Of a stretch of 64,000 bases of DNA, positions 8,227 to 21,167 are shown one piece after another. Numbering within the stretch: position 1 is the stretch's first letter; each line of letters opens with the position of its first letter. The stretch is from Oscillospiraceae bacterium (GTDB lineage: Bacteria > Bacillota > Clostridia > Oscillospirales > Acutalibacteraceae). Location: NCBI GenBank assembly GCA_015065845.1, contig SVPQ01000007.1, forward strand, positions 3,805-67,804, given 5' to 3'. The translations under genes were made by a program, and so were the position numbers. The notes under the pieces were generated by a model. The model worked only from the letters and a program-made list of their open reading frames with translations. It was not told the origin of the DNA and did not search any database.

Positions 8227-10446
8227 ATGAGTGATATTAAAGATTTTGTAATTGAAGATGGTGTGTTGAAAAAATATAAAGGTAAAGAAACAGAGATTGT
8301 CATTCCAGACAGTGTAACAAGTATAGGTAGTGGTGTGTTTAGTGAATGTATAAACCTCACTACAATCACAATACCAGACAGTGTAACAAGCATAGGTGCT
8401 TGGGCGTTTAAATATTGTACAAATCTCACTACAATCACAATCCCAGACAGTGTGACAAGTATAGGTGTGGATGCTTTTAAATATTGTGAAAATCTTACAA
8501 CAATTACCATCCTAGACAGTGTGACAAGTATAGGTGGTGGTGCATTTTATGGATGTAGCAGCCTCACCGCAATTACAATACCGGATAATGTGACAAGTAT
8601 AGGTAAAAATGCTTTTTTTAGCACATCTTACTATAAGAATAAATCAAATTGGGAAAATGGTGTCTTACACATAGGTAACCATTTAATAAAAGCAAAAAAG
8701 AATATTTCAGGTACATATACAATAAGAAATGGTACAAAAACTATTGCTGACAATGCTTTTGAAGCTTGCGAATCTCTCACAGGCATTACAATACCAGACA
8801 GTGTTACAAGCATAGGTGCTTGGGCGTTTGAAGAATGTACAAACCTTACCACAATCACAATACCAGAAAGTGTTACAAGTATAGGTGTGGATGCTTTTAA
8901 ATATTGTGAAAATCTTACAACAATTACCATCCCAGACAGTGTGACAAGTATAGGTGGAAATGCTTTTTTTAGCACATCTTACTATAATAATAAATCAAAT
9001 TGGGAAAAAGGTGTCTTACACATAGGTAACCATTTAATAAAAGCAAAAAAGAATATTCCAGGTACATATACAATAAGAAATGGTACAAAAACTATTGCTG
9101 ACAATGCGTTTGGAGAATGTACAAACCTCACCACAATCACAATACCAGACAGTGTTACAAGCATAGGTGCTTGGGCGTTCGGAGAATGTACAAACCTCAC
9201 TACAATCACCATCCCAGACAGTGTGACAAGTATAGGTGATTATGTGCTTGGTGGTTGTAATAAATTGAACGTTATTAATCTTCCACAAAATATAACATCA
9301 TTTAAAGGCTCTTTGCTTGAAAGAATATGGGATGCTTTATCAAAAACAGAATCGAAAGAAGTTGTTTTAAAATCATTTATCACTCAGTTGTCGATTGAAA
9401 TGCTCAAAGATGCGGATTTGAGTAGAAAAATAAAAACAAACAAAAAGTTGATAATTGATAATATAATAAAAAATGATGATGCAGAAGCATTAGCCAAACT
9501 TTTAAACTTGTATAAAACAATTAAGATAGATGAACTTAACGAATATATTGAAAATGCGAAAGATTCAGTAAGTGTTTTAGCATTCCTTTTAGATTATAAA
9601 AATAAAAATTATACAATCGAAAAACAAGAAAAACACGAAAATGATAAGCTTGATAAAGAACTTGGGCTTAAAGAGAGAACACTTGCCGAATGGAAGAAAA
9701 TTTATTCATTTGATGTAATTGATGTAAATGGTGCCAAAGCAACTATTACAGGATATAAAGGCGTAGATTTAAATGTAATTATTCCTTCAAATATTGATAA
9801 GTATAAAGTTATAGCAATTGCAGACTATGCTTTTAGTACAGAGGCAAAAGGTGTAAGAAAAGACATAAAAGAAATAAGAAGAAAAATAGAGTCTATTGTT
9901 ATACCGGAAAGTGTAGTACGTATAGGTAATTATGCGTTTTCTGGATGTGCAAACCTCACTACAATTACCATCCCAGACAGCGTGAGAAAAATAGGTGGAT
10001 ATTCGTTTTCTGGATGTAAAAACCTCACCGCAATCACAATACCTGACGGTGTGAGAAGTATAGGTGATAGGGCGTTTGAAGAATGTACAAACCTTACCAC
10101 AATCACAATACCGGACGGTGTTACAAGTATAGGTGAATATTCGTTTTCTGGATGTGAAAATCTCACCACAATCACAATCCCAGAAAGTGTTACAAGTATA
10201 GGTGAACATGCGTTTTATAGTTGTACAAACCTCACCGCAATCACAATACCCGAAGGAGTAACAAGTATAGGTGAAGAAGCATTCCGTTGGTGTGAAAAAC
10301 TCACTACAATCACAATACCAGATAGTATAACAAGTATAGGTTATAGGGCGTTTTCTTATTGTAAAAACCTCACTATCCACGCCCATACAGGAAGCTACGC
10401 AGAAAAATATGCAAAGAAAAATAAAATAAACTTTGTGGCAGAATAA
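8227..10446 (+). CDS. BspA-type LRR protein, paralog 5 (739 aa) with an internal 351-bp-offset duplication
   Basis: Conserved junction and caps. The FFSTSYYxNKSNWExGVLHIGNHLIKAKKNI.GTYTIRNGTKTIADNAF insert occurs twice. The shared 700-bp spacer module is present. Confidence 0.9.
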   Translation: MSDIKDFVIEDGVLKKYKGKETEIVIPDSVTSIGSGVFSECINLTTITIPDSVTSIGAWAFKYCTNLTTITIPDSVTSIGVDAFKYCENLTTITILDSVTSIGGGAFYGCSSLTAITIPDNVTSIGKNAFFSTSYYKNKSNWENGVLHIGNHLIKAKKNISGTYTIRNGTKTIADNAFEACESLTGITIPDSVTSIGAWAFEECTNLTTITIPESVTSIGVDAFKYCENLTTITIPDSVTSIGGNAFFSTSYYNNKSNWEKGVLHIGNHLIKAKKNIPGTYTIRNGTKTIADNAFGECTNLTTITIPDSVTSIGAWAFGECTNLTTITIPDSVTSIGDYVLGGCNKLNVINLPQNITSFKGSLLERIWDALSKTESKEVVLKSFITQLSIEMLKDADLSRKIKTNKKLIIDNIIKNDDAEALAKLLNLYKTIKIDELNEYIENAKDSVSVLAFLLDYKNKNYTIEKQEKHENDKLDKELGLKERTLAEWKKIYSFDVIDVNGAKATITGYKGVDLNVIIPSNIDKYKVIAIADYAFSTEAKGVRKDIKEIRRKIESIVIPESVVRIGNYAFSGCANLTTITIPDSVRKIGGYSFSGCKNLTAITIPDGVRSIGDRAFEECTNLTTITIPDGVTSIGEYSFSGCENLTTITIPESVTSIGEHAFYSCTNLTAITIPEGVTSIGEEAFRWCEKLTTITIPDSITSIGYRAFSYCKNLTIHAHTGSYAEKYAKKNKINFVAE
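8608..9107 (+). repeat. Internal direct duplication in paralog 5 (8608-8756 versus 8959-9107)
   Basis: The two roughly 150-bp segments are near-identical by eye, at an offset of 351 bp. Confidence 0.85.
9244..9948 (+). repeat. About 700-bp spacer module, copy 2 of 3
   Basis: Aligns with 2496-3190 and 14044-14739. Carries a 9-nt insertion (attgatgta). Confidence 0.85.
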
Positions 10447-10539
10447 AGAGGATTATTTTGTGATATTGAGTGGAAATTTGATTAGATTTTAATTGTTATT
10501 AAATGATAATGAAGTTTTTAGGATTGAGGTTTTAGTCGA

Positions 10540-11175
10540 ATGAACGAAAGAAAAATATGTCCTGTTATCGACAATATGGACAAGCGTTATACATATGCAC
10601 AGCATAAGGGCAGGTACAGTCAAGCGATGAAATATGAGTTTTATTTCGAAGCGTTGATGATTGATTATGCTCTTATGGAAGACAGATTGAAATCGTTTTT
10701 GTATCATGCAGGTGTATTAAATTCAAGAACATCCCATAAAATTGATTGCAGTAAACCTAATAAGGCTTTGTTAAAACAAATTTATTGTAAGTATCGAAAT
10801 AAAACTGATGTCAATTTACCGAAGATTCAGAATATAAGCGGTAAGATTGATATTATAAGAGCTGTCCTTGAATGGGTAAGTAATACAGAACAAAATCCTA
10901 ATGATAGCCGATATCTTAGAACTTTAAAAAATCAATGTGAGTCTGTTGATATTGGCGATATGTTGAATACTTTGAAAATGATTGAAGATTGGTGTAAGTA
11001 TCGCAATGAGGTTGTTCATGCATTGATGAATAAAAATATTGATTCCCTGAGGAGTGTACTTTGTGATAAGGCAATCGAAGGGATGGAACTTGCCAATCGA
11101 CTTGATACCTATGTTCGTGATATGAAAAAGGGTAATAAGGTTCGTAAATCTGCAAATATGTGTATTGAAAAATAA
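10540..11175 (+). CDS. Small HEPN-like protein (Rx4H motif)
   Basis: KYRNEVVHAL (R at 11002-11004, H at 11017-11019) lies in the C-terminal third of an all-helical-looking 211-aa protein. No other recognisable domain. Confidence 0.6.
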   Translation: MNERKICPVIDNMDKRYTYAQHKGRYSQAMKYEFYFEALMIDYALMEDRLKSFLYHAGVLNSRTSHKIDCSKPNKALLKQIYCKYRNKTDVNLPKIQNISGKIDIIRAVLEWVSNTEQNPNDSRYLRTLKNQCESVDIGDMLNTLKMIEDWCKYRNEVVHALMNKNIDSLRSVLCDKAIEGMELANRLDTYVRDMKKGNKVRKSANMCIEK

Positions 11176-11200
11176 AAGATAAGACTTAAGGTGATAAGAA

Positions 11201-12277
11201 TTGCGCTATATAATCAACGATAAAAAATATCATTTTAAATCAGCTTTTGATACTGAAACAGGTGCTTATGTCCGTACCGGTATTCTCGATGAAAATGGTA
11301 ATGATACAGGTGTTGATCCGTTTATGGCTTCATATCCTCATTTAATAGATGTTGGCATTATGGGACACTGTATTCACGGTAAAACCGGACTTTGTGCAAA
11401 AGCAGGTATCGGATGTTATCAAAGCGGTATGTTAGTAGAACAACCCAATATGTCGGTTGAAGACTTCAGGTGGATTGCAGAACAATCCAAAGGCAAATGC
11501 AATCAATTTGCTCTCGGTGGCAGAGGCGACCCCGACCAGCACGAGCATTTTGAAGAAATACTTAAAATCTGTCGAGAAAATGTGCTTGTGCCTAATTTCA
11601 CTACATCAGGTTACGGTATGACCCCCGAAATAGCAAAGCTTTGCAAACAGTATTGTGGTGCTGTTGCAGTAAGCTGGTATAGAAGCGAATATACGTTAAG
11701 AGCAATTCAAATGTTGCTTGATGCAGGGGTAAAAACCAATATACATTATGTGCTTGGCAAAAACAGTATTGATGAAGCGATTGAAAGACTGCAAAATAAT
11801 GATTTTCCAAAAGGAATCAACGCAGTAATCTTTTTGCTACACAAGCCGGCTGGTCAAGGCACCAAAGCAAATATGCTTGAAGCGAACGACCCAAGAGTTG
11901 CAAAATTTTTTGCCGAGGTGGATAAACAGCATCCATTTAAAGTTGGTATGGATAGCTGTAACGTGCCTGGCGCTATCAATTTCTGCAAATCTATCTTACC
12001 AGAATCTCTTGATACTTGTGAAGGTGGCAGATATAGTTGTTATATCGGTGCCGATATGATTATGGTGCCTTGCAGTTTTGACCAAGAAAAGCGATATGAA
12101 GTTTCTCTTCGTGATATGTCTATCACCGAAGCGTGGAATAGCGAACCTTTTGAGCGTTTTCGTAACAAAATGCGTGGTGCTTGTCCGAATTGCGAAAAGA
12201 AAGAACTTTGCATGGGCGGTTGCCCACTAATGCCTGAAATCGTTTTCTGTGAAAGCATAAAAAGAAAAATAATATAA
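11201..12277 (+). CDS. SPASM-domain radical-SAM-like enzyme with a non-canonical N-terminal Cys triad
   Basis: TTG start with AAGGTGA RBS. C-terminal CPNCEKKELCMGGC is CX2CX5CX3C (12182-12223), preceded by CEGGRYSCYIGADMIMVPC, which fits the SPASM pattern. LGGRGDP is GGEP-like. The N-terminal cluster site reads HCIHGKTGLCAKAGIGC (CX7CX6C) instead of CX3CX2C. Confidence 0.7.
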   Translation: MRYIINDKKYHFKSAFDTETGAYVRTGILDENGNDTGVDPFMASYPHLIDVGIMGHCIHGKTGLCAKAGIGCYQSGMLVEQPNMSVEDFRWIAEQSKGKCNQFALGGRGDPDQHEHFEEILKICRENVLVPNFTTSGYGMTPEIAKLCKQYCGAVAVSWYRSEYTLRAIQMLLDAGVKTNIHYVLGKNSIDEAIERLQNNDFPKGINAVIFLLHKPAGQGTKANMLEANDPRVAKFFAEVDKQHPFKVGMDSCNVPGAINFCKSILPESLDTCEGGRYSCYIGADMIMVPCSFDQEKRYEVSLRDMSITEAWNSEPFERFRNKMRGACPNCEKKELCMGGCPLMPEIVFCESIKRKII

Positions 12278-12295
12278 ACCAAGGGAGTAAATAAC

Positions 12296-13447
12296 ATGAA
12301 AATTAGAACTGATTTTGTGACCAATTCAAGTAGCTCAAGTTTTACGCTTATGATTAAATTTGATTTGGTTAATGGTAAAAGTGTTGAGTTTTATGCTCAA
12401 GGAGGCTCAGGTGAAACCGGTAGAATTGACTATTTTGATGCTGAAGCTATAGTTAATGTAAGCCCTAAACAATTGGGTAACGCTAAAAATGTTGATGAAC
12501 TTATTCAATTGCTCGAAGAAGGTGTTGTTGACGGAGAGGATGAAACAAAAATTTTTGATGAATCTCGCCCCGTAGAAAGTGAGGTGGGTGCAGGTGTATT
12601 TGATGCCTACGATTTTGTTATTGAAATTCGTGAGAAGATTAAATCAATGGAAGATATAGAATCTATAACAATTACAGGTAATGAAGAAAATTATGAGAGT
12701 TATAAACGTAGTTACACATATAACCTAAAAACAAAAGAATATACAGGTACTGAAGACGGATATTTACTACTTGAGGTTGATGGTTCTAACGGTGGTGATT
12801 TATGCTTCGATGATTTGCAGTCATGTGTTGTGCAAGCTGATTTATCCGTGGAAGATGATGAGTATTGGGAAAAGGATTTTTCGGACCTCACCACAATCAG
12901 AATCCCAGACAGTGTGACAAGTATAGGTGATTGGGAGTTTGATGGATGTGAAAACCTCACCACAATCACAATCCCCGACAGTGTAACAAGTATAGGTGAG
13001 GGTGCATTTTATGGATGTATCAGCCTCACCGCAATCACAATACCAGACAGTGTAACGAGTATTGGTGCTGAGGCTTTTGCATATTGCGAAAACCTTACAA
13101 CAATAAATATCCCCGACAGTGTAACAAGTATAGGTGAAAGTGCGTTTTCTTTTTGTGTAAACCTCACCACAATCACAATCCCGGACAGTGTGACAAGTAT
13201 AGGGGAAAGCGCGTTCGAATATTGCTCAAGCCTTACATCAATCAATATTCCTGAGAGTGTAACAAGTATAGGTGAAAGTGCGTTTAAATATTGTACAAAA
13301 CTCACCACAATCACAATCCCCGACAGTGTAACAAGCATAGGTGCTTGGGCGTTTGATGGATGTAAAAACCTCACCATCCACGCACCTAAGGGTAGTTATG
13401 CTGAACAGTATGCAAAAGAAAATAAAATAAAATTCATAGCAGAATAA
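12296..13447 (+). CDS. Chimeric protein: unique about 195-aa N-terminal domain (MKIRTDFVTNSSSSSF...) fused to seven BspA-type LRRs and the family C-cap
   Basis: GGGAG RBS. The N-terminal domain resembles nothing else in the window. From [15 protein letters not shown] onward it is a typical paralog, ending HAPKGSYAEQYAKENKIKFIAE. Confidence 0.85.
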   Translation: MKIRTDFVTNSSSSSFTLMIKFDLVNGKSVEFYAQGGSGETGRIDYFDAEAIVNVSPKQLGNAKNVDELIQLLEEGVVDGEDETKIFDESRPVESEVGAGVFDAYDFVIEIREKIKSMEDIESITITGNEENYESYKRSYTYNLKTKEYTGTEDGYLLLEVDGSNGGDLCFDDLQSCVVQADLSVEDDEYWEKDFSDLTTIRIPDSVTSIGDWEFDGCENLTTITIPDSVTSIGEGAFYGCISLTAITIPDSVTSIGAEAFAYCENLTTINIPDSVTSIGESAFSFCVNLTTITIPDSVTSIGESAFEYCSSLTSINIPESVTSIGESAFKYCTKLTTITIPDSVTSIGAWAFDGCKNLTIHAPKGSYAEQYAKENKIKFIAE

Positions 13448-13458
13448 GGAGTGTTATT

Positions 13459-15177
13459 ATGAGTGATATCAGAGATTTTGTAATTGAAAATGGAGTGTTG
13501 AAAAAATATACAGGTAATGAAAAAGAGGTTGTCATTCCAGAGGGCGTAACAAGCATAGGTGAAAATGCGTTCTGGTGGTGTAAAAACCTCACTACAATCA
13601 CAATACCTGACAGTGTAACAAGCATAGGTGCTTGGGCGTTTAAATATTGTACAAATCTCACTACAATCACAATACCAGACAGTGTTACAAGTATAGGTTA
13701 TGGTGCGTTTTCTGAATGTGAAAACCTCACCGCAATTACAACAATCCCGGACAGTGTGACAAGTATAGGTGGAAATGCGTTCTGGGGTTGTAAAGGGCTT
13801 GCAGATAAAAAAGGTTTTGTAATTATAAACGGAACTTTATATTATTACTGCGGTTTCGAAAAAAATGTGGTTATACCTGAGGGTGTAACAAGTATAGGTG
13901 ATAGTGCATTTGAAAATTGTTCATCTCTTACCACAATTACAATACCAGATAGTGTGACAAGTATAGGCGACAGTGCGTTTTCTTATTGTAAAAACCTCAC
14001 TACAATCACAATCCCTGACAGTGTGAAAAGTATGGGTAAAGATGTGCTTGGTGGTTGTAATAAATTGAATGTTATTAATCTTCCACAAAATATAACATCG
14101 TTTAAAGGTTCTTCTCTTGAAATAATATGGGATGCTTTATCAAAAACAGAATCGAAAGAAGTTGTTTTAAAATCATTTATCACTCAGTTACCGATTGATG
14201 TACTTAATGATGCAGATTTAAGCAAAAAAATAAAAGCAAATAAAAAACTAATTATTGATTGTATAATGAAAAATGACGAAGCAGAAGCTTTAGAAAAATT
14301 TTTCAGCTTATATAAAACAATTAAGTTTGATGAGATTAATGAATACATAGAAAAAGCAAAAGATTCTGTAAATGTTTCAGCGTTTCTTTTGGATTATAAA
14401 AATAAGAATTACACAGTTGAAAAACAAGAAAAGCACGAAAATGATAAGCTTGATAAAGAACTTGGGCTTAAAGAGAGAACACTTGCCGAATGGAAGAAAA
14501 TTTATTTATTTGATGTAAATGGTGACGAAGCAACTATTACAGGATACAAAGGATTAGATTTAAATGTAATTATTCCTTCAAGTATTGCGAAGTATAAAGT
14601 TGTAGCAATTGCTGACAACGCTTTTATTCCTGAAGCGACTGGTTTAAGAAAAGACATAAAAGAAATAAGAAGAAAAATAGAGTCTATTGTTATACCGGAA
14701 AGTGTAGTACGTATAGGTAATTATGCGTTTTCTGGATGTAAAAACCTCACTACAATCACAATCCCAGACAGCGTGACAAGTATAGGTAAAATGGCGTTTT
14801 ATGGTTGTAGTGGCCTCACCGCAATTGCAATCCCAGACAGCGTGACAAGTATAGGTAAAATGGCGTTTTATGGTTGTAGTGGCCTCACCGCAATTGCAAT
14901 CCCTGACAGTGTAACAAGTATAGGTGAGAGTGCATTTGAGGGTTGTCAAAACCTCACCGCAATCACAATACCAGACAGTGTGACAAGTATAGGTGAAAGT
15001 GCGTTTTCTTGGTGTAAAAACCTTACTACAATCACAATTCCTGACAGTGTTACGAGTATTGGTAAGGATGCTTTTTACAATTGCGAAAAACTAACTATCC
15101 ACGCCTATGCAGGAAGCTACGCAGAAAAATATGCAAAAGAAAATAAAATTCATAGCAGAATAAAGGAGTATTGTTAA
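13459..15177 (+). CDS. BspA-type LRR protein, paralog 7, with a frameshifted C-terminal cap
   Basis: Conserved junction and N-cap. Shares a 150-bp identical block with paralog 2 (13751-13900 = 2000-2148). The tail reads YAKENKIHSRIKEYC* instead of YAKENKIKFIAE*. Confidence 0.85.
   Translation: MSDIRDFVIENGVLKKYTGNEKEVVIPEGVTSIGENAFWWCKNLTTITIPDSVTSIGAWAFKYCTNLTTITIPDSVTSIGYGAFSECENLTAITTIPDSVTSIGGNAFWGCKGLADKKGFVIINGTLYYYCGFEKNVVIPEGVTSIGDSAFENCSSLTTITIPDSVTSIGDSAFSYCKNLTTITIPDSVKSMGKDVLGGCNKLNVINLPQNITSFKGSSLEIIWDALSKTESKEVVLKSFITQLPIDVLNDADLSKKIKANKKLIIDCIMKNDEAEALEKFFSLYKTIKFDEINEYIEKAKDSVNVSAFLLDYKNKNYTVEKQEKHENDKLDKELGLKERTLAEWKKIYLFDVNGDEATITGYKGLDLNVIIPSSIAKYKVVAIADNAFIPEATGLRKDIKEIRRKIESIVIPESVVRIGNYAFSGCKNLTTITIPDSVTSIGKMAFYGCSGLTAIAIPDSVTSIGKMAFYGCSGLTAIAIPDSVTSIGESAFEGCQNLTAITIPDSVTSIGESAFSWCKNLTTITIPDSVTSIGKDAFYNCEKLTIHAYAGSYAEKYAKENKIHSRIKEYC
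14044..14739 (+). repeat. About 700-bp spacer module, copy 3 of 3
   Basis: Aligns with 2496-3190 and 9244-9948. Confidence 0.85.
14761..14898 (+). repeat. Exact 69-bp tandem duplication (2 units) inside paralog 7
   Basis: 14761-14829 and 14830-14898 are identical (atcccagacagcgtgacaagtataggtaaaatggcgttttatggttgtagtggcctcaccgcaattgca). Confidence 0.95.
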
Positions 15178-15448
15178 CGAATAATATCGGGCGGATAATT
15201 TAGCTGGTTGAGCCTTGACAATTTGACATAATTGATAGTGGTGGTATAGCGCTATTCGTAATGTGCATATTGAAAAAAATAAAAACTGCTGAAATCTTTG
15301 CCGTCAGGCAATTTCATTACAAAATGTTTCATTATGCAACATTTCATTATCGAAAGGTATCTTTATTTTTGCGTGAAGTTCAAAGGGTTTGAAATGAAGT
15401 TTGCTCCAGAAGTCGCAAAATGAAGTTGTGTTCTTGCGAACATAAAAC

Positions 15449-15481
15449 AAAAATCTCAAGTCTTGTGACTTGAGATTTTTT
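15449..15481 (-). terminator. Intrinsic terminator hairpin after the HIRAN gene (bidirectional-looking)
   Basis: aaaatctcaagtc-ttgt-gacttgagatttt, flanked by an A-run and a T-run. Confidence 0.7.
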
Positions 15482-15482
15482 A

Positions 15483-15971
15483 TTATCTTTTAAGTTCAAT
15501 AACAGTTTCTACAAAAAGCACCGCTTTTTTTGCGTGTCGGCTTCGCATTGAGATAGGCTCAACGAAGCTTACTGAAGCACTTTTAAACAATAAATGACCA
15601 TTATCATAAAGTGGGGCAATTGCGTTGCATAAATCTGCCGGTAAAGTACCTAAATTCTTATTCGATTCAGTAAATAACGAAAAATTATTTCGGTTGAAAG
15701 AATTTTCACCATCTCTTACAATATTGATTTTATCGTGGAGTTTTATAGATTCTATCTGCTCTGTTCTGCCCTCATAACGTGTGCCCATAGCTTCAAATTT
15801 TATTGTCATAGTGTCTGTGGCTTCATCATAACTTCCATAATACTGCTCAGGGTATTCCATAAAACCCGGTTCATAATAATCAGGACCTACAGTAAGGGAA
15901 TTCTCATATTTGTGATGAATTTTTTTTACTTCTTCAAGCAGATTGTTTATTAAAATATCATAATTATTCAT
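15483..15971 (-). CDS. HIRAN-domain protein
   Basis: GTRYEGRTEQIESIKLHDKINIVRDGENSFNRNNFSLF...LGTLPADLCNAIAPLYDNG fits the HIRAN pattern (Y-G..., NxxDxNA-like, lG.lp...a..lapl). The stop of the upstream gene lies 2 nt before its ATG. Confidence 0.65.
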   Translation of the reverse strand: MNNYDILINNLLEEVKKIHHKYENSLTVGPDYYEPGFMEYPEQYYGSYDEATDTMTIKFEAMGTRYEGRTEQIESIKLHDKINIVRDGENSFNRNNFSLFTESNKNLGTLPADLCNAIAPLYDNGHLLFKSASVSFVEPISMRSRHAKKAVLFVETVIELKR

Positions 15972-15973
15972 AA

Positions 15974-18913
15974 TTAATAAATTCCCTCCGCTTCTTCAAG
16001 TTCACGGTAATAAGCTTCTGCTGAAGAATAAAACCTGTCAAGAATGTTATCGTAATAGATTTCTGTTCCATGTAACCTATAGGTAACGTCTGACTTTTCA
16101 TTGATTTTACAACCATATCTTATCATTTCTTCCATAAGGTCATAAGTGTCAATAGAACCGTGTGTTTTAATAATCCACATTTCAAATGCTTTTATAGTAA
16201 CGGTTGTTTTTCCTTTATAGAGAACAATATTATTAAAAATCTGTTCAGAAGAATAACGCTCATCCCCCACAAGTATGTTTGCATAGAACCAGTCAGAGAA
16301 ACCGAGGTCAAAAAGTTCGTGCTCAAAGCCTGCTGATTTAATGGTTTTTATACTGAAAAATGTATTGTCTTCAACAAAATCGAAAACACTGTCGCAGAAA
16401 TTTTCAATGAGTTCATCTGTAATTCCGCCTGCCTCTAACTTTCTTTTACTTATCAGGTGGTCAGGGTCAAATTCAAAGACGATTTTATTGCTTTTGAGAT
16501 GCGTCAGCGTTCCTGAAAAAGCCTGTACATAAGCGAATTTTTTCCTGAGAGGCTTAATATCAAGAATATCGGACTTAGTTAAAAGATTTTTGAAATATGC
16601 GTCAAGTGAGGCGTGATTCTGGTAAGCGTATTTTGAAAGCACCGAAAAGCCTATATTTTTAAGATTGAACGGATTGATTTCAGATAAATCGGCACCAGGA
16701 AATAAATCCTTATATATTTTTTTGATTTCATCAATATAATAGAAATCCTTTGTAAGTTTTTCGCTGAGCAAGGTTTTCGCGTCATCACTCATAACTTTGT
16801 AGTCAACTCTGTAAGAACCCTGGTAATAATATTTGCTGAAATTCTTCCAGATTATTGCACCTGATTCAAATCCATATTCCTTGCGCACAAGGTCAAGTAA
16901 CTCTTCCTGTGTAAGTGGTGCATTGTTCATAATAAGCTCAGTAACAGCTTCATTTCTGTCAAATTCACCAAAGCAAAGTATTGGTGTTCTGCCACAACGG
17001 AAGTTATTGTAACTATTTTCAGGAACAATCTTTCTTAACAGATTATGTAACTCATACTGGTCTCTTATATCATACTTTTGCATAAGCTCAGGGTAATCAT
17101 CCATAAATTTAAGAGTTGATATTTCAATGTTTTCATAAGACTCAAAATTGAGTGTGTCAAATAATTCAGAATAATCTCTCGCATCAATGTCGTAATATCT
17201 TATTAATTCATTTTGTTTCCACAAAGCAATACGCGACTCTCCAAGATGATTTTTTCTTGTTTTTAAAACACCTTCAGTGTAGTAAAGTTTTTCATCATAA
17301 GGTATGTTTTCTGATTTGAGGAATAAGTTGAATTTTTCTGCAAAATCAGTGAATGAAATATCGTCCTGACAGAATTTACTTAAAAAATAGTTTTCAAGCT
17401 CAAAACGCTTTTTCTCAATCCACATACCATCAAGCAGGATTTTATTGCGGTTAAGGTAGTTTTTTACCTTGAGCTTTAAACCTATGTCAAGTTTGTTATC
17501 TTCAAGTGCAGAACGAAGGTCGTTTTTGCCTTGCTTTATATTACGCATATCCATATAGTTGAAAACAGCAGCATCAATACCGAACCATTTTTCTGCATCG
17601 CTTTTGTCAAAAGCGTATGTGCTGAAAAAGATTTCGTAGTAATCTTCATCAAAGCAAGCGACACCAGTTTCCTCTTTGCACTGGATACAAAGCTTGTTAA
17701 AATCTCTTTTTTCAATCTGTCGGATTCTTTCTCTTGTTACGTTGAATTCAGTGCCGATTGATTCGAGTGTGGCGCCATCAAGACGCTTTTCAATAAGCGC
17801 TTTGCTTCGTTCATCTATAGCGCATGATTTTTTTAGATAATTTTTAAATTTAGGGTATTTGCGATAACAACGATAATCAACATATTCAAGTTTTTTATCT
17901 GCTATCATTCTGCCTATTACACTTTTCAGACGACTTTCATCAACGTCAATTGGTAAATGCAGATTGTCGGTAAAATCTTTGAAGCTGAAGCCACGGAATT
18001 TATTATTTGCATACAACTCAAGAATGCTTTTACTGATTTCTTCTTCGGTAATAATAGCAGAAGAATCACCATCACAGAAAGCAAGAATTCTGGCTCTATG
18101 CTGCTCAAGATATTCTTTTCGCTTTTCGAGAATATTATCAACCGAGCCTTTTCCCATTGCAGGCATTCTGTAAAATTCTGCTTCAGATATAAAAATAATT
18201 TCGCTAAGATAAGAATAGCCAGCTTTACGAAGTTGATTTTTTGGTCGGTTTTCAATATTCCAGTCACCAATGAAAATATCGTTTGTGATTACATAAGAAC
18301 GTATTTTTTCTCTGTTGGCAGGTGAGTGGAGAATATCAAAAACAGTGTTTGTGGGATTTAAAGATTTTTTTATTGATTCATTGAATGCTGTAATGATATT
18401 GTCTTTTTGTGTTTCAACGTAAACAGTACAGCTTGTGGTTATTTCAGTAGCGGTGGAAATATCCATCATTTTAATGCTCATTAAATCATTTTTGTCTTCA
18501 AAAAGAATATCTTTAATAAATTTCTTACCAGCAAACATAAGAAGATTGTAAGCTTTTGAAGAAATATCAGAAAGGACGTTCAGTTCTGTGTTTGCTGCAT
18601 TGAAAAATTCTTTTATAAATTCTTTGCCACAGTCGGTTTTAGCCCATTCATAAAAATTGTCATCATTAAGCTCTGGCACGTAGCATTCTGCATCTTCATT
18701 GACGGTTGATTCAAAGTTGGCATTAGCATAAATATTAATTGTTTCAGCAACTTCGTTAACAGATTTTTCTCCCATATTAGGAAGATTCTGGAGTTCGCCT
18801 TTTTTGTAAAAAGCTACCATTTCACCGAATGTGGAAATACCGGCTCTGTGCAGACAATTCCTTGTGCGCACTGATAAATTTAATTCATCTATAGATAAAA
18901 CATTGATATCCAT
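15974..18913 (-). CDS. Large (979 aa) multi-HTH protein: three RpoA alpha-CTD-like HhH modules, a sigma-70 region-4-like HTH and a long uncharacterised C-terminal region
   Basis: DELNLSVRTRNCLHRAGISTFGEM...GEKSVNEV (residues about 5-62), with similar modules near residues 110-160 and 215-268. ATLESIGTEFNVTRERIRQIEKR lies at 17696-17818. I recognise no catalytic motif. Confidence 0.7.
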   Translation of the reverse strand: MDINVLSIDELNLSVRTRNCLHRAGISTFGEMVAFYKKGELQNLPNMGEKSVNEVAETINIYANANFESTVNEDAECYVPELNDDNFYEWAKTDCGKEFIKEFFNAANTELNVLSDISSKAYNLLMFAGKKFIKDILFEDKNDLMSIKMMDISTATEITTSCTVYVETQKDNIITAFNESIKKSLNPTNTVFDILHSPANREKIRSYVITNDIFIGDWNIENRPKNQLRKAGYSYLSEIIFISEAEFYRMPAMGKGSVDNILEKRKEYLEQHRARILAFCDGDSSAIITEEEISKSILELYANNKFRGFSFKDFTDNLHLPIDVDESRLKSVIGRMIADKKLEYVDYRCYRKYPKFKNYLKKSCAIDERSKALIEKRLDGATLESIGTEFNVTRERIRQIEKRDFNKLCIQCKEETGVACFDEDYYEIFFSTYAFDKSDAEKWFGIDAAVFNYMDMRNIKQGKNDLRSALEDNKLDIGLKLKVKNYLNRNKILLDGMWIEKKRFELENYFLSKFCQDDISFTDFAEKFNLFLKSENIPYDEKLYYTEGVLKTRKNHLGESRIALWKQNELIRYYDIDARDYSELFDTLNFESYENIEISTLKFMDDYPELMQKYDIRDQYELHNLLRKIVPENSYNNFRCGRTPILCFGEFDRNEAVTELIMNNAPLTQEELLDLVRKEYGFESGAIIWKNFSKYYYQGSYRVDYKVMSDDAKTLLSEKLTKDFYYIDEIKKIYKDLFPGADLSEINPFNLKNIGFSVLSKYAYQNHASLDAYFKNLLTKSDILDIKPLRKKFAYVQAFSGTLTHLKSNKIVFEFDPDHLISKRKLEAGGITDELIENFCDSVFDFVEDNTFFSIKTIKSAGFEHELFDLGFSDWFYANILVGDERYSSEQIFNNIVLYKGKTTVTIKAFEMWIIKTHGSIDTYDLMEEMIRYGCKINEKSDVTYRLHGTEIYYDNILDRFYSSAEAYYRELEEAEGIY

Positions 18914-18924
18914 AATAAGTCATC

Positions 18925-20658
18925 CTATAAAAGTTTTTTGAGATTTTCTGCTGTCTCAATAAGATTACTGAGTTCTGCATTAAGAGTTGATTTTTCATCC
19001 GGGTCAAGTTTTACAAAAAGTCGGGAATCAATATCTAATAATAGTGAAATACAACTTGCAATATTTTCTACCGGTCTTGCTTTTAACTCCTGAGCTCTGA
19101 GACTCAAAAGAGCTTTTTCCATTGAAAATCTCATTCTTTCTGCAAGAGCAGAATTTTCTTCAGCAAAACTATCAAGGGCTTCTTTGGTTTTGTTGCCTAT
19201 GCTTGCATATTTTTTGCTTATTTCCTGTGCGATTACTGATTGCTCATCAAAGTAATTTTTATAATTACCACTTCGTACAAGAGCTTTTATATCACGCATA
19301 AATTTGCGTTGGTCAGGAACTGCACCGATAAGTGTGTTATTAAAAGCAATAACCTTCATTTGATTTTTTTCATTTTCATCGCTGAGCGAGTTGAATAAAG
19401 GCAGCATCTCTCTGAAAAGGTCATGTACCTGATATTTACGAGCAATATGATATTGCTCAGGTATAGAAAGATATTCAAGGAATTCATTGATTAAACCAGC
19501 AATTTCAATACGCTTCTTTACATTTGCTACTGACTCATTTGATGTTTCGGCATATTCTTCTATTGTAAGAAGGTTGGTTTTGACAATATCTCTGTAAGTA
19601 CCGATTGTATGGTCTATGGCATCATAATCAACCTTCTTTTCTTCGCCGTGCTGAATAGCAAGCTCAAGAAGTTTTATTGTTTTTTTGTCTGCAATTATAT
19701 CCATTTCCATAATTACAGTTTCAAAATAAAGAGGCTCGGTTGTTTCTCTGCTGTTTATTCGTAAGCAGGTGAATCGACGGTTACCATCTACAATACGACC
19801 ATCAGAAAGTGTAACACCAGGCTCACGCTGACCCACAAGAGAAATATTTTTTCTTGTTTTCTGAATTGAGTCAGGATTGCTTTCGGTAATAAAGTTTTCA
19901 ATAATTCTGTTATAAATTGCTGAATTAAGTTCTTTAAGTGAATCTTTACCGTTTTCAGATTCATAAGCAGAAATCCACGTAGCAATACGGTCATTCTGGT
20001 CGTTGTAGTAAAGCAACTCAAGATTAACTCTGTAAACAGGATAAATAACAGTTTTTCCGTTATATGTGATTTTTCTTGTTAAATCTGTTTTCTGAACAAG
20101 GTCGGTACCTACATAATTAAGGAGACTTTCTGCAGGCGCTTCATCACGGTTGGAATCAGAAGCGGGTTGAGCAAGTCCTGTAAAGGTCTTTGTTACAGGG
20201 TTGAGTGATATGTCAGATGCTCTTGAACGTGCTTCTTTATATATTTCATTGATTTCTTCGGCAGCTTCTTCGTCACATTCCTTGCAGAGTAAATACATAG
20301 TGTTCAGCGCACGCTCTGCGAGGGGTTGGTCAAGGTCGCTCTGACCTATATGTGCAACCATATTTCTGATACCCATAAGCTCTTTTGCCCAACTGCGACA
20401 ATTTTGTGAAAGGTGATTTCTGAAAACGTTTGTCCATTGTCGGTCGATAATTCTTATGCAATTAGCAATATCAAGAGAATCAATTAATTCATTGTATTCG
20501 CCATAATATGGTAAATCTCTTTGGTCATCCAGAACACCGAGAACCTGCTCCCACCAGTTGTTTTTATATTCGAGGCACATTTTTTGCCCTATAAATCCTG
20601 ATAACGAAGATAAGAGTATTCTGAATCCTTTTTGAACGAGTTCATAGTTTTCGGTCAT
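18925..20658 (-). CDS. Swt1-like HEPN domain fused to a ParB/Srx-fold (DGxxR) domain and a helical C-terminal region
   Basis: GIRNMVAH Rx4H motif (20350-20367). LYYNDQNDRI ... GRIVDGNRRFTCLR (DGNRR at 19774-19788) is ParB N-terminal-domain-like. I prefer the ATG at 20658; the ORF also extends to a TTG at 20679. Confidence 0.7.
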   Translation of the reverse strand: MTENYELVQKGFRILLSSLSGFIGQKMCLEYKNNWWEQVLGVLDDQRDLPYYGEYNELIDSLDIANCIRIIDRQWTNVFRNHLSQNCRSWAKELMGIRNMVAHIGQSDLDQPLAERALNTMYLLCKECDEEAAEEINEIYKEARSRASDISLNPVTKTFTGLAQPASDSNRDEAPAESLLNYVGTDLVQKTDLTRKITYNGKTVIYPVYRVNLELLYYNDQNDRIATWISAYESENGKDSLKELNSAIYNRIIENFITESNPDSIQKTRKNISLVGQREPGVTLSDGRIVDGNRRFTCLRINSRETTEPLYFETVIMEMDIIADKKTIKLLELAIQHGEEKKVDYDAIDHTIGTYRDIVKTNLLTIEEYAETSNESVANVKKRIEIAGLINEFLEYLSIPEQYHIARKYQVHDLFREMLPLFNSLSDENEKNQMKVIAFNNTLIGAVPDQRKFMRDIKALVRSGNYKNYFDEQSVIAQEISKKYASIGNKTKEALDSFAEENSALAERMRFSMEKALLSLRAQELKARPVENIASCISLLLDIDSRLFVKLDPDEKSTLNAELSNLIETAENLKKLL

Positions 20659-20754
20659 AATAAAACCTGCTTTCAACAATTAATATACAAATTATAATGT
20701 ATTTAAGTCGAAAAAACAAGATTTTGTTTGTAAAATATAGAATTTACGTAAAAC

Positions 20755-20789
20755 AAAAACTCTCAAATCCTGAGACTTGAGAGTTTTTT
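20755..20789. terminator. Hairpin homologous to the 15449-15481 terminator
   Basis: aaaaactctcaa-atcctgagac-ttgagagttttt. Aligns with the 15442-15481 sequence, with a compensatory extra base pair and loop substitutions. Confidence 0.6.
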
Positions 20790-20793
20790 AGTT

Positions 20794-20815
20794 TGGTACG
20801 GGTGACAGGACTCGA
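20794..20815 (-). pseudogene. 22-nt duplicate of the tRNA-Leu 3-prime end (att-like remnant)
   Basis: tggtacgggtgacaggactcga versus tggtgcgggtgacaggactcga at 20948-20969 (1 mismatch). No matching 5-prime acceptor strand or anticodon arm lies upstream. Confidence 0.7.
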
Positions 20816-20911: not shown

Positions 20912-20947
20912 AATAAAAAACAACCTTAGTATATCTACCAAGGTTGT
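20912..20947 (-). terminator. Terminator hairpin immediately after tRNA-Leu
   Basis: caacctt-agtatatctacc-aaggttg, followed on the minus strand by a T-run. Confidence 0.7.
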
Positions 20948-21032
20948 TGGTGCGGGTGACAGGACTCGAACCTGCAAGGATCGCTCCAATGGGACCTAAA
21001 CCCATCGTGTTTGCCAGTTCCACCACACCCGC
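20948..21032 (-). tRNA. tRNA-Leu (anticodon TAG), type II with long variable arm, encoded CCA
   Basis: The reverse complement is GCGGGTG...ATGGG-TTTAGGT-CCCAT...GGTTCGAGTCC...CACCCGC-A-CCA. The cloverleaf folds by hand. Confidence 0.9.
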
Positions 21033-21130: not shown

Positions 21131-21167
21131 TGATTGAAACAGAATTTTTGAAATTCTGTTTCAATCA
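21131..21167 (-). terminator. Hairpin downstream of the glutamine synthetase gene
   Basis: tgattgaaacagaattt-ttg-aaattctgtttcaatca is a perfect 17-bp stem. The T-run is weak on the minus strand. Confidence 0.5.

Follow-up and report, generated by a model that had tools for sequence, protein, structure and literature searches.

The lactococcal abortive-infection system AbiR has been known since 2000, and its mechanism is still opaque. According to a 2026 review on lactococcal Abi systems, the AbiR proteins of Lactococcus lactis plasmid pKR223 are a protein resembling sigma-70 (AbiRi/a, aligned to an 820-aa model), a protein resembling ParB (AbiRii/b) and a restriction-endonuclease-like N terminus joined to an SNF2-type helicase (AbiRiii/c), and the three are predicted to form a complex (PMC13064643). 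The system lowers phage DNA replication and needs the LlaKR2I methylase (M.LlaKR2I), without which it is toxic; the sigma-like protein may be the sensor (PMC13064643). Here we describe a three-gene operon, g1–g2–g3 (the triad), on the minus strand of a 64,000-nt stretch of DNA from an Oscillospiraceae bacterium (contig SVPQ01000007.1, positions 3,805–67,804; the whole stretch is called the window). g1 fuses a HEPN domain to a ParB-like module, g2 is a 979-aa protein built from RNA-polymerase-derived modules and winged helices, and g3 is a HIRAN protein. Judged by sequence homology and by analogy, the triad is best filed as a variant of AbiR-like systems, with the same predicted sensor pair and a HEPN/HIRAN output set instead.

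Parts of the triad can also be compared with other described proteins. The architecture class of g1, an Swt1-type HEPN domain with a ParB domain (Saro_3948 type), is one table entry in the 2013 HEPN survey of Anantharaman et al., where it is predicted to be a defence RNase/DNase combination (PMC3710099). That entry gives no operon partners and no sigma-like or HIRAN genes, and the likeness to g1 is one of architecture class only. PglW of the BREX type 2 (Pgl) system binds nucleic acid through a helical module similar to the C-terminal domain (CTD) of the RNA polymerase alpha subunit, followed by several winged-helix modules (PMC12839542). This DNA-binding part is comparable to g2, whereas PglW as a whole is a kinase with a STAND-like C terminus, has no sigma-70 region 4 (sigma-4), carries one alpha-CTD-like module against three in g2 and works with other partners. 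Fold and profile searches match the g1 core best to the CTP-dependent clamps ParB, Noc and KorB, with GERR and GNRR motifs and the helix-turn-helix (HTH) aligned. The match is a distant one (E about 0.05), g1 has neither a parS nor a ParA partner, and its domain is fused to an RNase. With HLTF/Rad5 and Druantia the comparison concerns the third component: HIRAN and an SNF2-type helicase are alternatives at this place in two sister systems, but HIRAN of the window stands alone as a 162-aa protein, and the 64 kb encode no helicase.

The triad is compact. On the minus strand (as are all its features below), g1 (18925–20658, 577 aa), g2 (15974–18913, 979 aa, a predicted DNA-reading scaffold) and g3 (15483–15971, 162 aa) are co-directional, with spacers of 11 nt (18914–18924) and 2 nt (15972–15973). 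The listed open reading frame (ORF) of g1 reaches a TTG at 20679 (18925–20679); because homologues measure 574–577 aa and the NCBI call is 577 aa, the start is almost certainly the ATG at 20658 (M8). Residues of g1 are given in the 577-aa numbering; that of the first-pass annotation, a model's reading of the bare sequence, runs 7 higher. Read along the minus strand, a terminator-like hairpin (20788–20751) precedes a putative promoter recognized by eye (TTGTTT-17 nt-TATAAT, 20719–20691, 33 nt 5′ of the g1 ATG), the three genes and a second terminator-like hairpin (15481–15449), which lies directly 3′ of the g3 stop. By this layout the locus is a self-contained transcription unit. A search of the 64-kb window for homologues of the helicases discussed below (including those of loci L074, L053 and L077), DruE, methylase, SbcCD and Sel1 proteins found none, so the triad can stand alone. 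No gene or domain for a minimal nucleotidyltransferase antitoxin, as in HEPN–MNT pairs, was found among the ORFs and Pfam matches of the operon.

The HEPN domain of g1 is unambiguous. HEPN_Swt1 (PF18731) covers residues 10–127 (20278–20631) at 85.9 bits against a cut-off of 27.5 (E = 3e-24). Within it, the R, N and H of the RNxxxH motif (R98-N-M-V-A-H103, 20350–20367) are invariant in 32 homologues, and the catalytic Rx4-6H motif of the HEPN superfamily is present and intact. Behind it come a ParB/Srx-like core (residues about 194–404; 19447–20079), with an invariant D-G-N-R-R arginine patch (19774–19788) leading into a ParB-HTH-like region, and an all-helical C-terminal region (residues 405–577; 18928–19446). 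The latter is confidently modelled and is common to stand-alone ParB-like proteins of about 400 aa.

Placing the g1 core required remote methods. Direct detection of ParB returned nothing from Pfam, NCBIfam, PHROGs or phmmer against the PDB, with no ParBc match. Profiles of close relatives (A1 and A3) gave no ParB match either, and a diverse profile over the full length (A4) drowned in low-complexity helical matches. The sole profile to reach ParB was A5, built from the diverse core after an exhaustive HMMER search: its three best PDB matches are Myxococcus (M. xanthus) ParB (E = 0.05), and the alignment sets GNRR on the ParB GERR arginine patch and extends into the ParB HTH, a remote match at E about 0.05. 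The Pfam family ddrB-ParB scores below threshold in 16 of 31 diverse family members (best E = 7.5e-4); one of the 31 matches HTH_ParB, and one GmrSD_N (18 bits against a cut-off of 33). The AlphaFold2 (AF2) model of g1 has a predicted local distance difference test score (pLDDT) of 70.6 and is poor at residues 245–293, which cover DGNRR. Searching with it in Foldseek gives ParB, Noc or Spo0J for 13 of the top 20 matches, at probabilities up to 0.93 and E values of 0.06 or worse; they are weak because the model is unreliable over this stretch. Several relatives already bear the PGAP names 'ParB N-terminal domain-containing protein' or 'ParB/RepB/Spo0J family partition protein'. Profiles and models together suggest that the g1 core is likely a remote member of the ParB superfamily, resembling CTP-switch ParBs more than nuclease-type members.

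g2 combines pieces of the transcription machinery. RNA_pol_A_CTD (PF03118) matches three stretches at 92.3 bits (cut-off 23.8, E = 1.5e-26): module 1 at residues 3–61 (18731–18907), module 2 at about 110–168 (18410–18586) and module 3 at about 215–271 (18101–18271). Sigma70_r4 (PF04545) follows at 30.2 bits (cut-off 24.1), on an HTH with the motif TRERIRQIE (residues 356–416; 17666–17848), and a further winged helix precedes it. A profile of 40 g2 homologues finds alpha-CTD structures (E = 5e-15) and sigma region 4 (E about 1e-7) in the PDB, and Foldseek matches the alpha-CTD with probability 1.0 and a TM-score up to 0.91. The remaining stretch (residues 422–975; 15989–17650) is modelled as an array of about seven winged-helix-like modules. 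In the AF2 model (whole-protein pLDDT 84.7) these C-terminal ~570 residues form repeated helix-helix-helix-hairpin units, which Foldseek likens to the tandem winged-helix arrays of UFL1, SelB WH1-4, STK19, Dcc1 and ESCRT-II.

Conservation in g2 falls on the residues that would touch DNA, numbered here by what we take to be their equivalents in E. coli RpoA and sigma. Module 1, 34–44% identical to genuine alpha-CTDs, retains the 265-determinant equivalents R265 (40/40), N268 (40/40), G296 (39/40), K298 (39/40) and S299 (34/40). Of these, only the R...N pair survives in modules 2 and 3 (R/K...N in module 2, which has lost the GKKS loop). The sigma-4 equivalents of the −35 contacts R584, E585, R586, R588 and Q589 (R-E-R-x-R-Q) are invariant in all 40 homologues, and the 261 determinant, the protein-contact surface of alpha-CTD, is unconserved across the same set. 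g2 is not a sigma factor, since regions 2 and 3 are absent and the NCBIfam sigma equivalogs all score far under their cut-offs. Its conserved DNA contacts make it look like a true DNA reader, put together from the modules with which RNA polymerase recognises upstream promoter DNA and lacking a core-binding region: a predicted DNA-reading protein that keeps the contact residues for the upstream-promoter (UP) element in its alpha-CTD and for the −35 element in its sigma-4 region.

The third gene encodes a HIRAN domain (PF08797, 35.9 bits against 24.7) at residues 57–136 (15564–15803). In eukaryotic HLTF, this domain binds forks and 3′ ends. One pig-gut lineage (L063/L064) replaces g3 with a 1239-aa protein bearing HIRAN at its N terminus, directly followed by a DruE-like helicase (L063 14682–21734, also in L064; PADLOC DruE3, E = 7e-125). 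Association with DruE is confined to this lineage, and DruE is absent from the window. The fusion partner, about 1070 residues, belongs to no detectable family, and L015 keeps a 60-aa remnant of it. We rejected an identification of the fusion as DruH, as it has no PADLOC, Pfam or PDB match outside the HIRAN domain. The fusion and its helicase may be a Druantia-like pair with a novel protein in the DruH position.

These results bear out most of what the first-pass annotation had read from the letters: three minus-strand ORFs in the places given (g1 as the listed 18925–20679) with those spacers, an Swt1-like HEPN domain (now at E = 3e-24 and with RNxxxH invariant in 32 homologues), and the three alpha-CTD modules, sigma-70 region 4 and HIRAN domain, all above curated Pfam thresholds. 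Its ParB-fold claim held through convergent remote evidence under curated thresholds (A5, ddrB-ParB, Foldseek and PGAP names). The '570 residues without motif' that it ascribed to g2 proved instead to be the tandem winged-helix array seen with AF2 and Foldseek.

The evidence for an AbiR relationship starts from the part of g1 outside HEPN. An exhaustive HMMER search with residues 170–577 retrieved 864 clusters at 50% identity, mostly stand-alone proteins of about 400 aa. On 52 Enterococcus plasmids, such a protein is the middle gene of a three-gene operon encoding an 864-aa 'sigma factor-like helix-turn-helix DNA-binding protein', a 405-aa ParB-like protein and a 620-aa DEAD/DEAH (SNF2-type) helicase. 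An example is E. faecalis pQZ076-2 (L074 4372–10047), where the genes are annotated as hypothetical or generic proteins only. This sister operon of Lactobacillales plasmids, with Enterococcus proteins such as WP_002362439 and WP_002403427, occurs on roughly 800–1000 Enterococcus contigs and on 66–67 plasmids, nearly all conjugative or mobilisable. The 864-aa protein is 26% identical to g2 over about 600 residues (BLASTP, E = 6e-44; hhalign probability 100%, E = 2.7e-40), and a whole-database search with it retrieves alpha-CTD-bearing g2-type proteins (E = 5e-45 to 7e-30). Homology spans residues 372–974 of g2, from sigma-4 to the C terminus, and about 180–577 of g1. The Enterococcus g2 homologues have no alpha-CTD modules and are still paired with the ParB-like protein. 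With both partners homologous to the Enterococcus gene pair, the conserved core is the sigma-4/winged-helix protein together with the ParB-like module.

Other ParB-like relatives sit in restriction–modification (R-M) operons. On viral-classified contigs and a Lactococcus plasmid, type III operons run in the order Mod, Res, ParB-like, SNF2 helicase; in Lactiplantibacillus plantarum, the ParB-like gene lies between a Dcm methylase and an SNF2 protein, with a Sau3AI-family endonuclease and Vsr. As an observation beside these, an unannotated two-gene R-M add-on of ParB-like protein and SNF2-type helicase is present on Lactobacillales plasmids (L053 4810–13061, L076 4002–12016, L077 4751–12001). 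Against PADLOC v2 models, the ParB-like, sigma-like and helicase proteins showed nothing beyond generic SNF2 similarity.

The Enterococcus operon matches AbiR, as the review describes it, by architecture and by architecture only. An AbiR-named protein did not appear among the matches of the database search, and accession W1VBZ4 is absent from the cluster members. The triad and AbiR each encode a large sigma-70-like and a ParB-like protein together in one operon, and both systems are mobile. They differ in several respects. The triad has g3 HIRAN in place of the SNF2/restriction-endonuclease third component (AbiRc), its ParB-like module is fused to HEPN, and no methylase stands next to it. Its gene order is inverted, with the ParB-like gene first, and the N terminus of g2 is extended by three alpha-CTD modules and a winged helix.

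The triad is patchily distributed and well conserved as a unit. In a large protein database g1 has 2337 matches and g2 more than 300 full-length matches; scanning one genome per GTDB species (185,579 species representatives) yielded 38 loci. Most belong to gut or rumen Lachnospiraceae, Oscillospiraceae, Acutalibacteraceae and Butyrivibrio, with outliers in Collinsella, Erysipelotrichaceae and a short Alistipes-binned contig. The three genes are adjacent and co-directional in 26 of the ~30 loci that have enough downstream DNA, overlap in some, and keep this order while identity falls to 51% (g1), 36% (g2) and 48% (g3). A full triad is also present on one IMG/VR contig.

Neighbourhoods, read as Pfam-annotated contexts of the encoding contigs, differ from genome to genome. 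One triad lies inside an integrative mobilisable element that also encodes two integrases as well as RepA_N, NikA-like, excisionase-type HTH, WYL and BRCT proteins; that of Butyrivibrio sp. LC3010 has transposases and phage-like genes nearby, and another is accompanied by an integrase and by CYTH and Macro proteins. Elsewhere the neighbours include a giant PIN_4 protein and a NERD-UvrD helicase, and SbcCD stands beside the triad in six contexts. Many triad loci, the window included, are chromosomal with no element genes nearby. The annotated neighbourhoods are mostly mobile-element or defence contexts, and we conclude that g1–g2–g3 is one self-contained, horizontally mobile cassette. The first-pass annotation had judged the operon to have the look of a defence islet and had looked to conserved three-gene synteny to tell; both domains and synteny hold, the annotated surroundings are mostly mobile or defence-related, and the function is a prediction.

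Several recurring neighbours deserve record. SbcD/SbcC pairs are found at L012/L014 (2004–8642), L017, L031, L043, L059–L061 and L003; in L012 an additional HIRAN protein of 127 aa comes before the pair and a DUF2779/Cas4-like protein after it. The adjacent SbcD proteins look co-mobile themselves, being 64–68% identical across bacterial families, and the pair may be a mobile module in its own right, for DNA-end processing or for defence. A Sel1-repeat protein recurs on either side of the triad (L059 15340–17847; L017, L022, L031, L034, L065–L068) and is fused to, or next to, BRCT domains in some loci. Butyrivibrio hungatei has a divergent 705-aa g1 relative without g2 or g3, directly behind an R-M operon with two C5-methyltransferases. 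This HEPN form (L045 9974–12091) ends in a beta-rich C-terminal extension of about 110 aa that is likewise an extra domain of some ParB-like proteins (P0245, P0249, P0253 and P0258).

From these sequence features we estimate a probability of about 0.6 that the triad is a defence or abortive-infection system with a HEPN effector; each single mechanistic step below is far less certain. The cassette most likely defends against phages or other invading DNA through abortive infection. The active site of HEPN RNases requires dimerisation, and nucleotide binding makes ParB N-domains dimerise, so the most economical model is a nucleotide-gated, DNA-dependent juxtaposition of HEPN domains. By analogy with AbiR-type operons, g2 and the ParB-like domain of g1 would form a common DNA-surveillance core. 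g2 would dock on promoter-like, AT-rich DNA and position g1, whose ParB-like module would act as a nucleotide-gated dimerisation or clamp switch, and g3 would report free 3′ DNA ends, such as those of linear phage genomes or of replication and recombination intermediates. The combined signal would unite two HEPN domains into an active RNase, and its cleavage of host and phage RNA would halt the infection. That HIRAN and SNF2 helicases are alternative third parts, occur together in HLTF/Rad5 and, in the case of HIRAN, beside DruE suggests that the two target the same DNA structures. The AbiR-type output would be a DNA-directed helicase–nuclease restrained by host methylation, that of the triad an RNA-directed HEPN. 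An RNA-directed abortive output needs no methylase, which would explain why neither the window nor the annotated loci have one next to the triad.

Several facts weigh against this interpretation. The ParB assignment of g1 lies under curated thresholds, and the AF2 model is poor exactly at GNRR. The switch role of g1 and the end-reporting role of g3 are steps we infer. The AbiR link is drawn from a review's description of architecture. The association with defence and mobile genes comes from contexts annotated case by case, and the triad of the window is flanked by housekeeping genes (glutamine synthetase III (GSIII) and a TilS-like ATPase) and BspA-type leucine-rich-repeat (LRR) surface proteins rather than by a defence island. 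In a PADLOC v2 scan, g1 matched no model and no named system was found. g2 gave short matches only (sigma-4 to MzaA and, weakly, alpha-CTD residues 7–66 to PglW), and g3 weak HIRAN matches to the candidate PDC-M03B only. Literature searches on combinations of HEPN, ParB, HIRAN and alpha-CTD found no description of the triad, nor did triad or sister-operon accessions turn up in them. The first-pass annotation had likewise failed to match any named system; this stands for PADLOC, and needs amending for the sigma-like and ParB-like parts, which are homologous to an operon pair of AbiR architecture.

The same modules allow other readings, of which the most serious makes g2 a decoy or guard. Its alpha-CTD and sigma-4 parts would bait phage proteins that take over RNA polymerase (anti-sigma or appropriator proteins, alpha-CTD ADP-ribosyltransferases), and their capture, not DNA recognition, would free the HEPN RNase. 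Three alpha-CTD copies and a sigma-4 with no core-binding region are indeed odd for a simple DNA binder, module 1 is close to true alpha-CTDs (34–44% identity), MzaA of the MZA system is likewise a sigma-family protein, and the review's suggestion of a sigma-like sensor would fit (PMC13064643). Set against this, the family conserves exactly the DNA-contact residues and not the 261 determinant, and the Enterococcus homologues that lack alpha-CTD keep their ParB-like partner, which makes alpha-CTD an accessory and not the core sensor; we therefore regard the decoy as rather unlikely. That the ParB-like domain is itself the effector, a DNA nickase or nuclease like Osa or of GmrSD type that restricts DNA directly while HEPN only binds RNA or regulates, we find improbable. 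The invariant RNxxxH indicates a catalytic role for HEPN, the best matches of the core are the CTP-switch ParB, Noc and Spo0J, HTH included, rather than nuclease-type members, and there is no HNH or other nuclease partner domain. The points in its favour are the weak GmrSD_N match of one relative, the stand-alone ParB-like proteins inside R-M operons and the lowering of phage DNA replication by AbiR (PMC13064643).

The cassette could also serve its carrier rather than its host, by excluding plasmids or integrative and conjugative elements or by post-segregational killing with HEPN as the toxin. One triad does lie within an integrative mobilisable element, the sister operon rides on 66–67 plasmids that are nearly all conjugative or mobilisable, and ParB-superfamily nucleases mediate conjugative-plasmid conflict (cited in PMC12839542). 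Such a role is unlikely, given the many chromosomal loci with no element genes nearby (the window among them), the lack of a conserved cognate antitoxin-like small gene and the action on phages of AbiR, the closest architecture (PMC13064643). A housekeeping function in transcription or DNA-end repair, for instance as a promoter-bound factor tied to fork or double-strand-break processing with SbcCD, is very hard to reconcile with a distribution of 38 in 185,579 species representatives, locations that vary between relatives, triads on mobile elements and an intact HEPN toxin domain. It would draw on the six contexts with adjoining SbcCD and on the binding of forks and 3′ ends by HIRAN of eukaryotic HLTF; however, those SbcD proteins are 64–68% identical across families and so look co-mobile, and the window has no SbcCD.

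On a wider reading, the triad, the operons of AbiR architecture and the ParB-like/SNF2 add-ons of type III and Sau3AI-type R-M loci might constitute one large unrecognised defence class, built on a nucleotide-gated ParB-like switch and steered to promoter-like DNA by borrowed RNA-polymerase modules that read the UP and −35 elements. We advance this wider grouping tentatively and think it doubtful as a whole. Under it, the Clostridial form would couple the sensing of transcribed or free-ended invading DNA to RNA destruction at the site of transcription.

The borders of the locus record its own past. A 45-nt direct repeat (87% identity), made up of two terminator-like hairpins and non-palindromic flanks, brackets the genes at 20746–20790 and 15440–15482; the left copy (20746–20790, minus strand) is upstream of the promoter, and the right one contains the hairpin that follows g3. 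Further out lies tRNA-Leu(TAG) (20948–21032, minus strand), and 131 nt downstream of it a 23-nt duplicate of its 3′ end (20793–20815, minus strand; original 20947–20969) that spans T-loop to CCA with one mismatch. By its sequence this copy resembles an att scar, left by a tRNA-targeting integrase after almost all of its element was lost; we treat tRNA and scar as context rather than as parts of the system. Flanking repeats were sought in 24 other triad loci and none were found, confining them to this lineage, and tRNA targeting as a general feature of the triad was rejected, a tRNA being nearby in just 3 of 31 contexts. Looking for an empty site, we searched contigs with the identical GSIII neighbour for one without the triad, and all carry it. 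The tRNA adjacency and bracketing repeats pointed out by the first-pass annotation are thus real here and are traces of this locus's past rather than features of the cassette (0/24 loci; 3/31 contexts).

Outside the cassette, a perfect 17-bp inverted repeat with a 3-nt loop (21131–21167), between the GSIII stop and tRNA-Leu, is probably a bidirectional terminator. On the other side, the window carries an array of LRR_5 BspA-type surface-protein genes (8227–15177) that repeats with a period of 69 nt (23 aa). As the array differs between otherwise identical contigs (L006 and L007), this is probably a surface locus subject to variation.

The architecture of the triad is unusual, though its parts are individually familiar. 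By keeping the sigma-like/ParB-like pair and swapping SNF2/restriction endonuclease for HEPN and HIRAN, it separates sensor core from effector, and it offers a methylase-independent, probably less clone-toxic AbiR-like version for study. If the proposal is true, immunity would join the known roles of ParB-type nucleotide switches, taking the ParB clamp beyond segregation, and the promoter-reading modules of RNA polymerase (alpha-CTD and sigma-4) would have been recruited into defence proteins. At stake is a system that is common yet unannotated in Firmicutes of clinical and industrial relevance, with 864 clusters that reach into Enterococcus and dairy plasmids.

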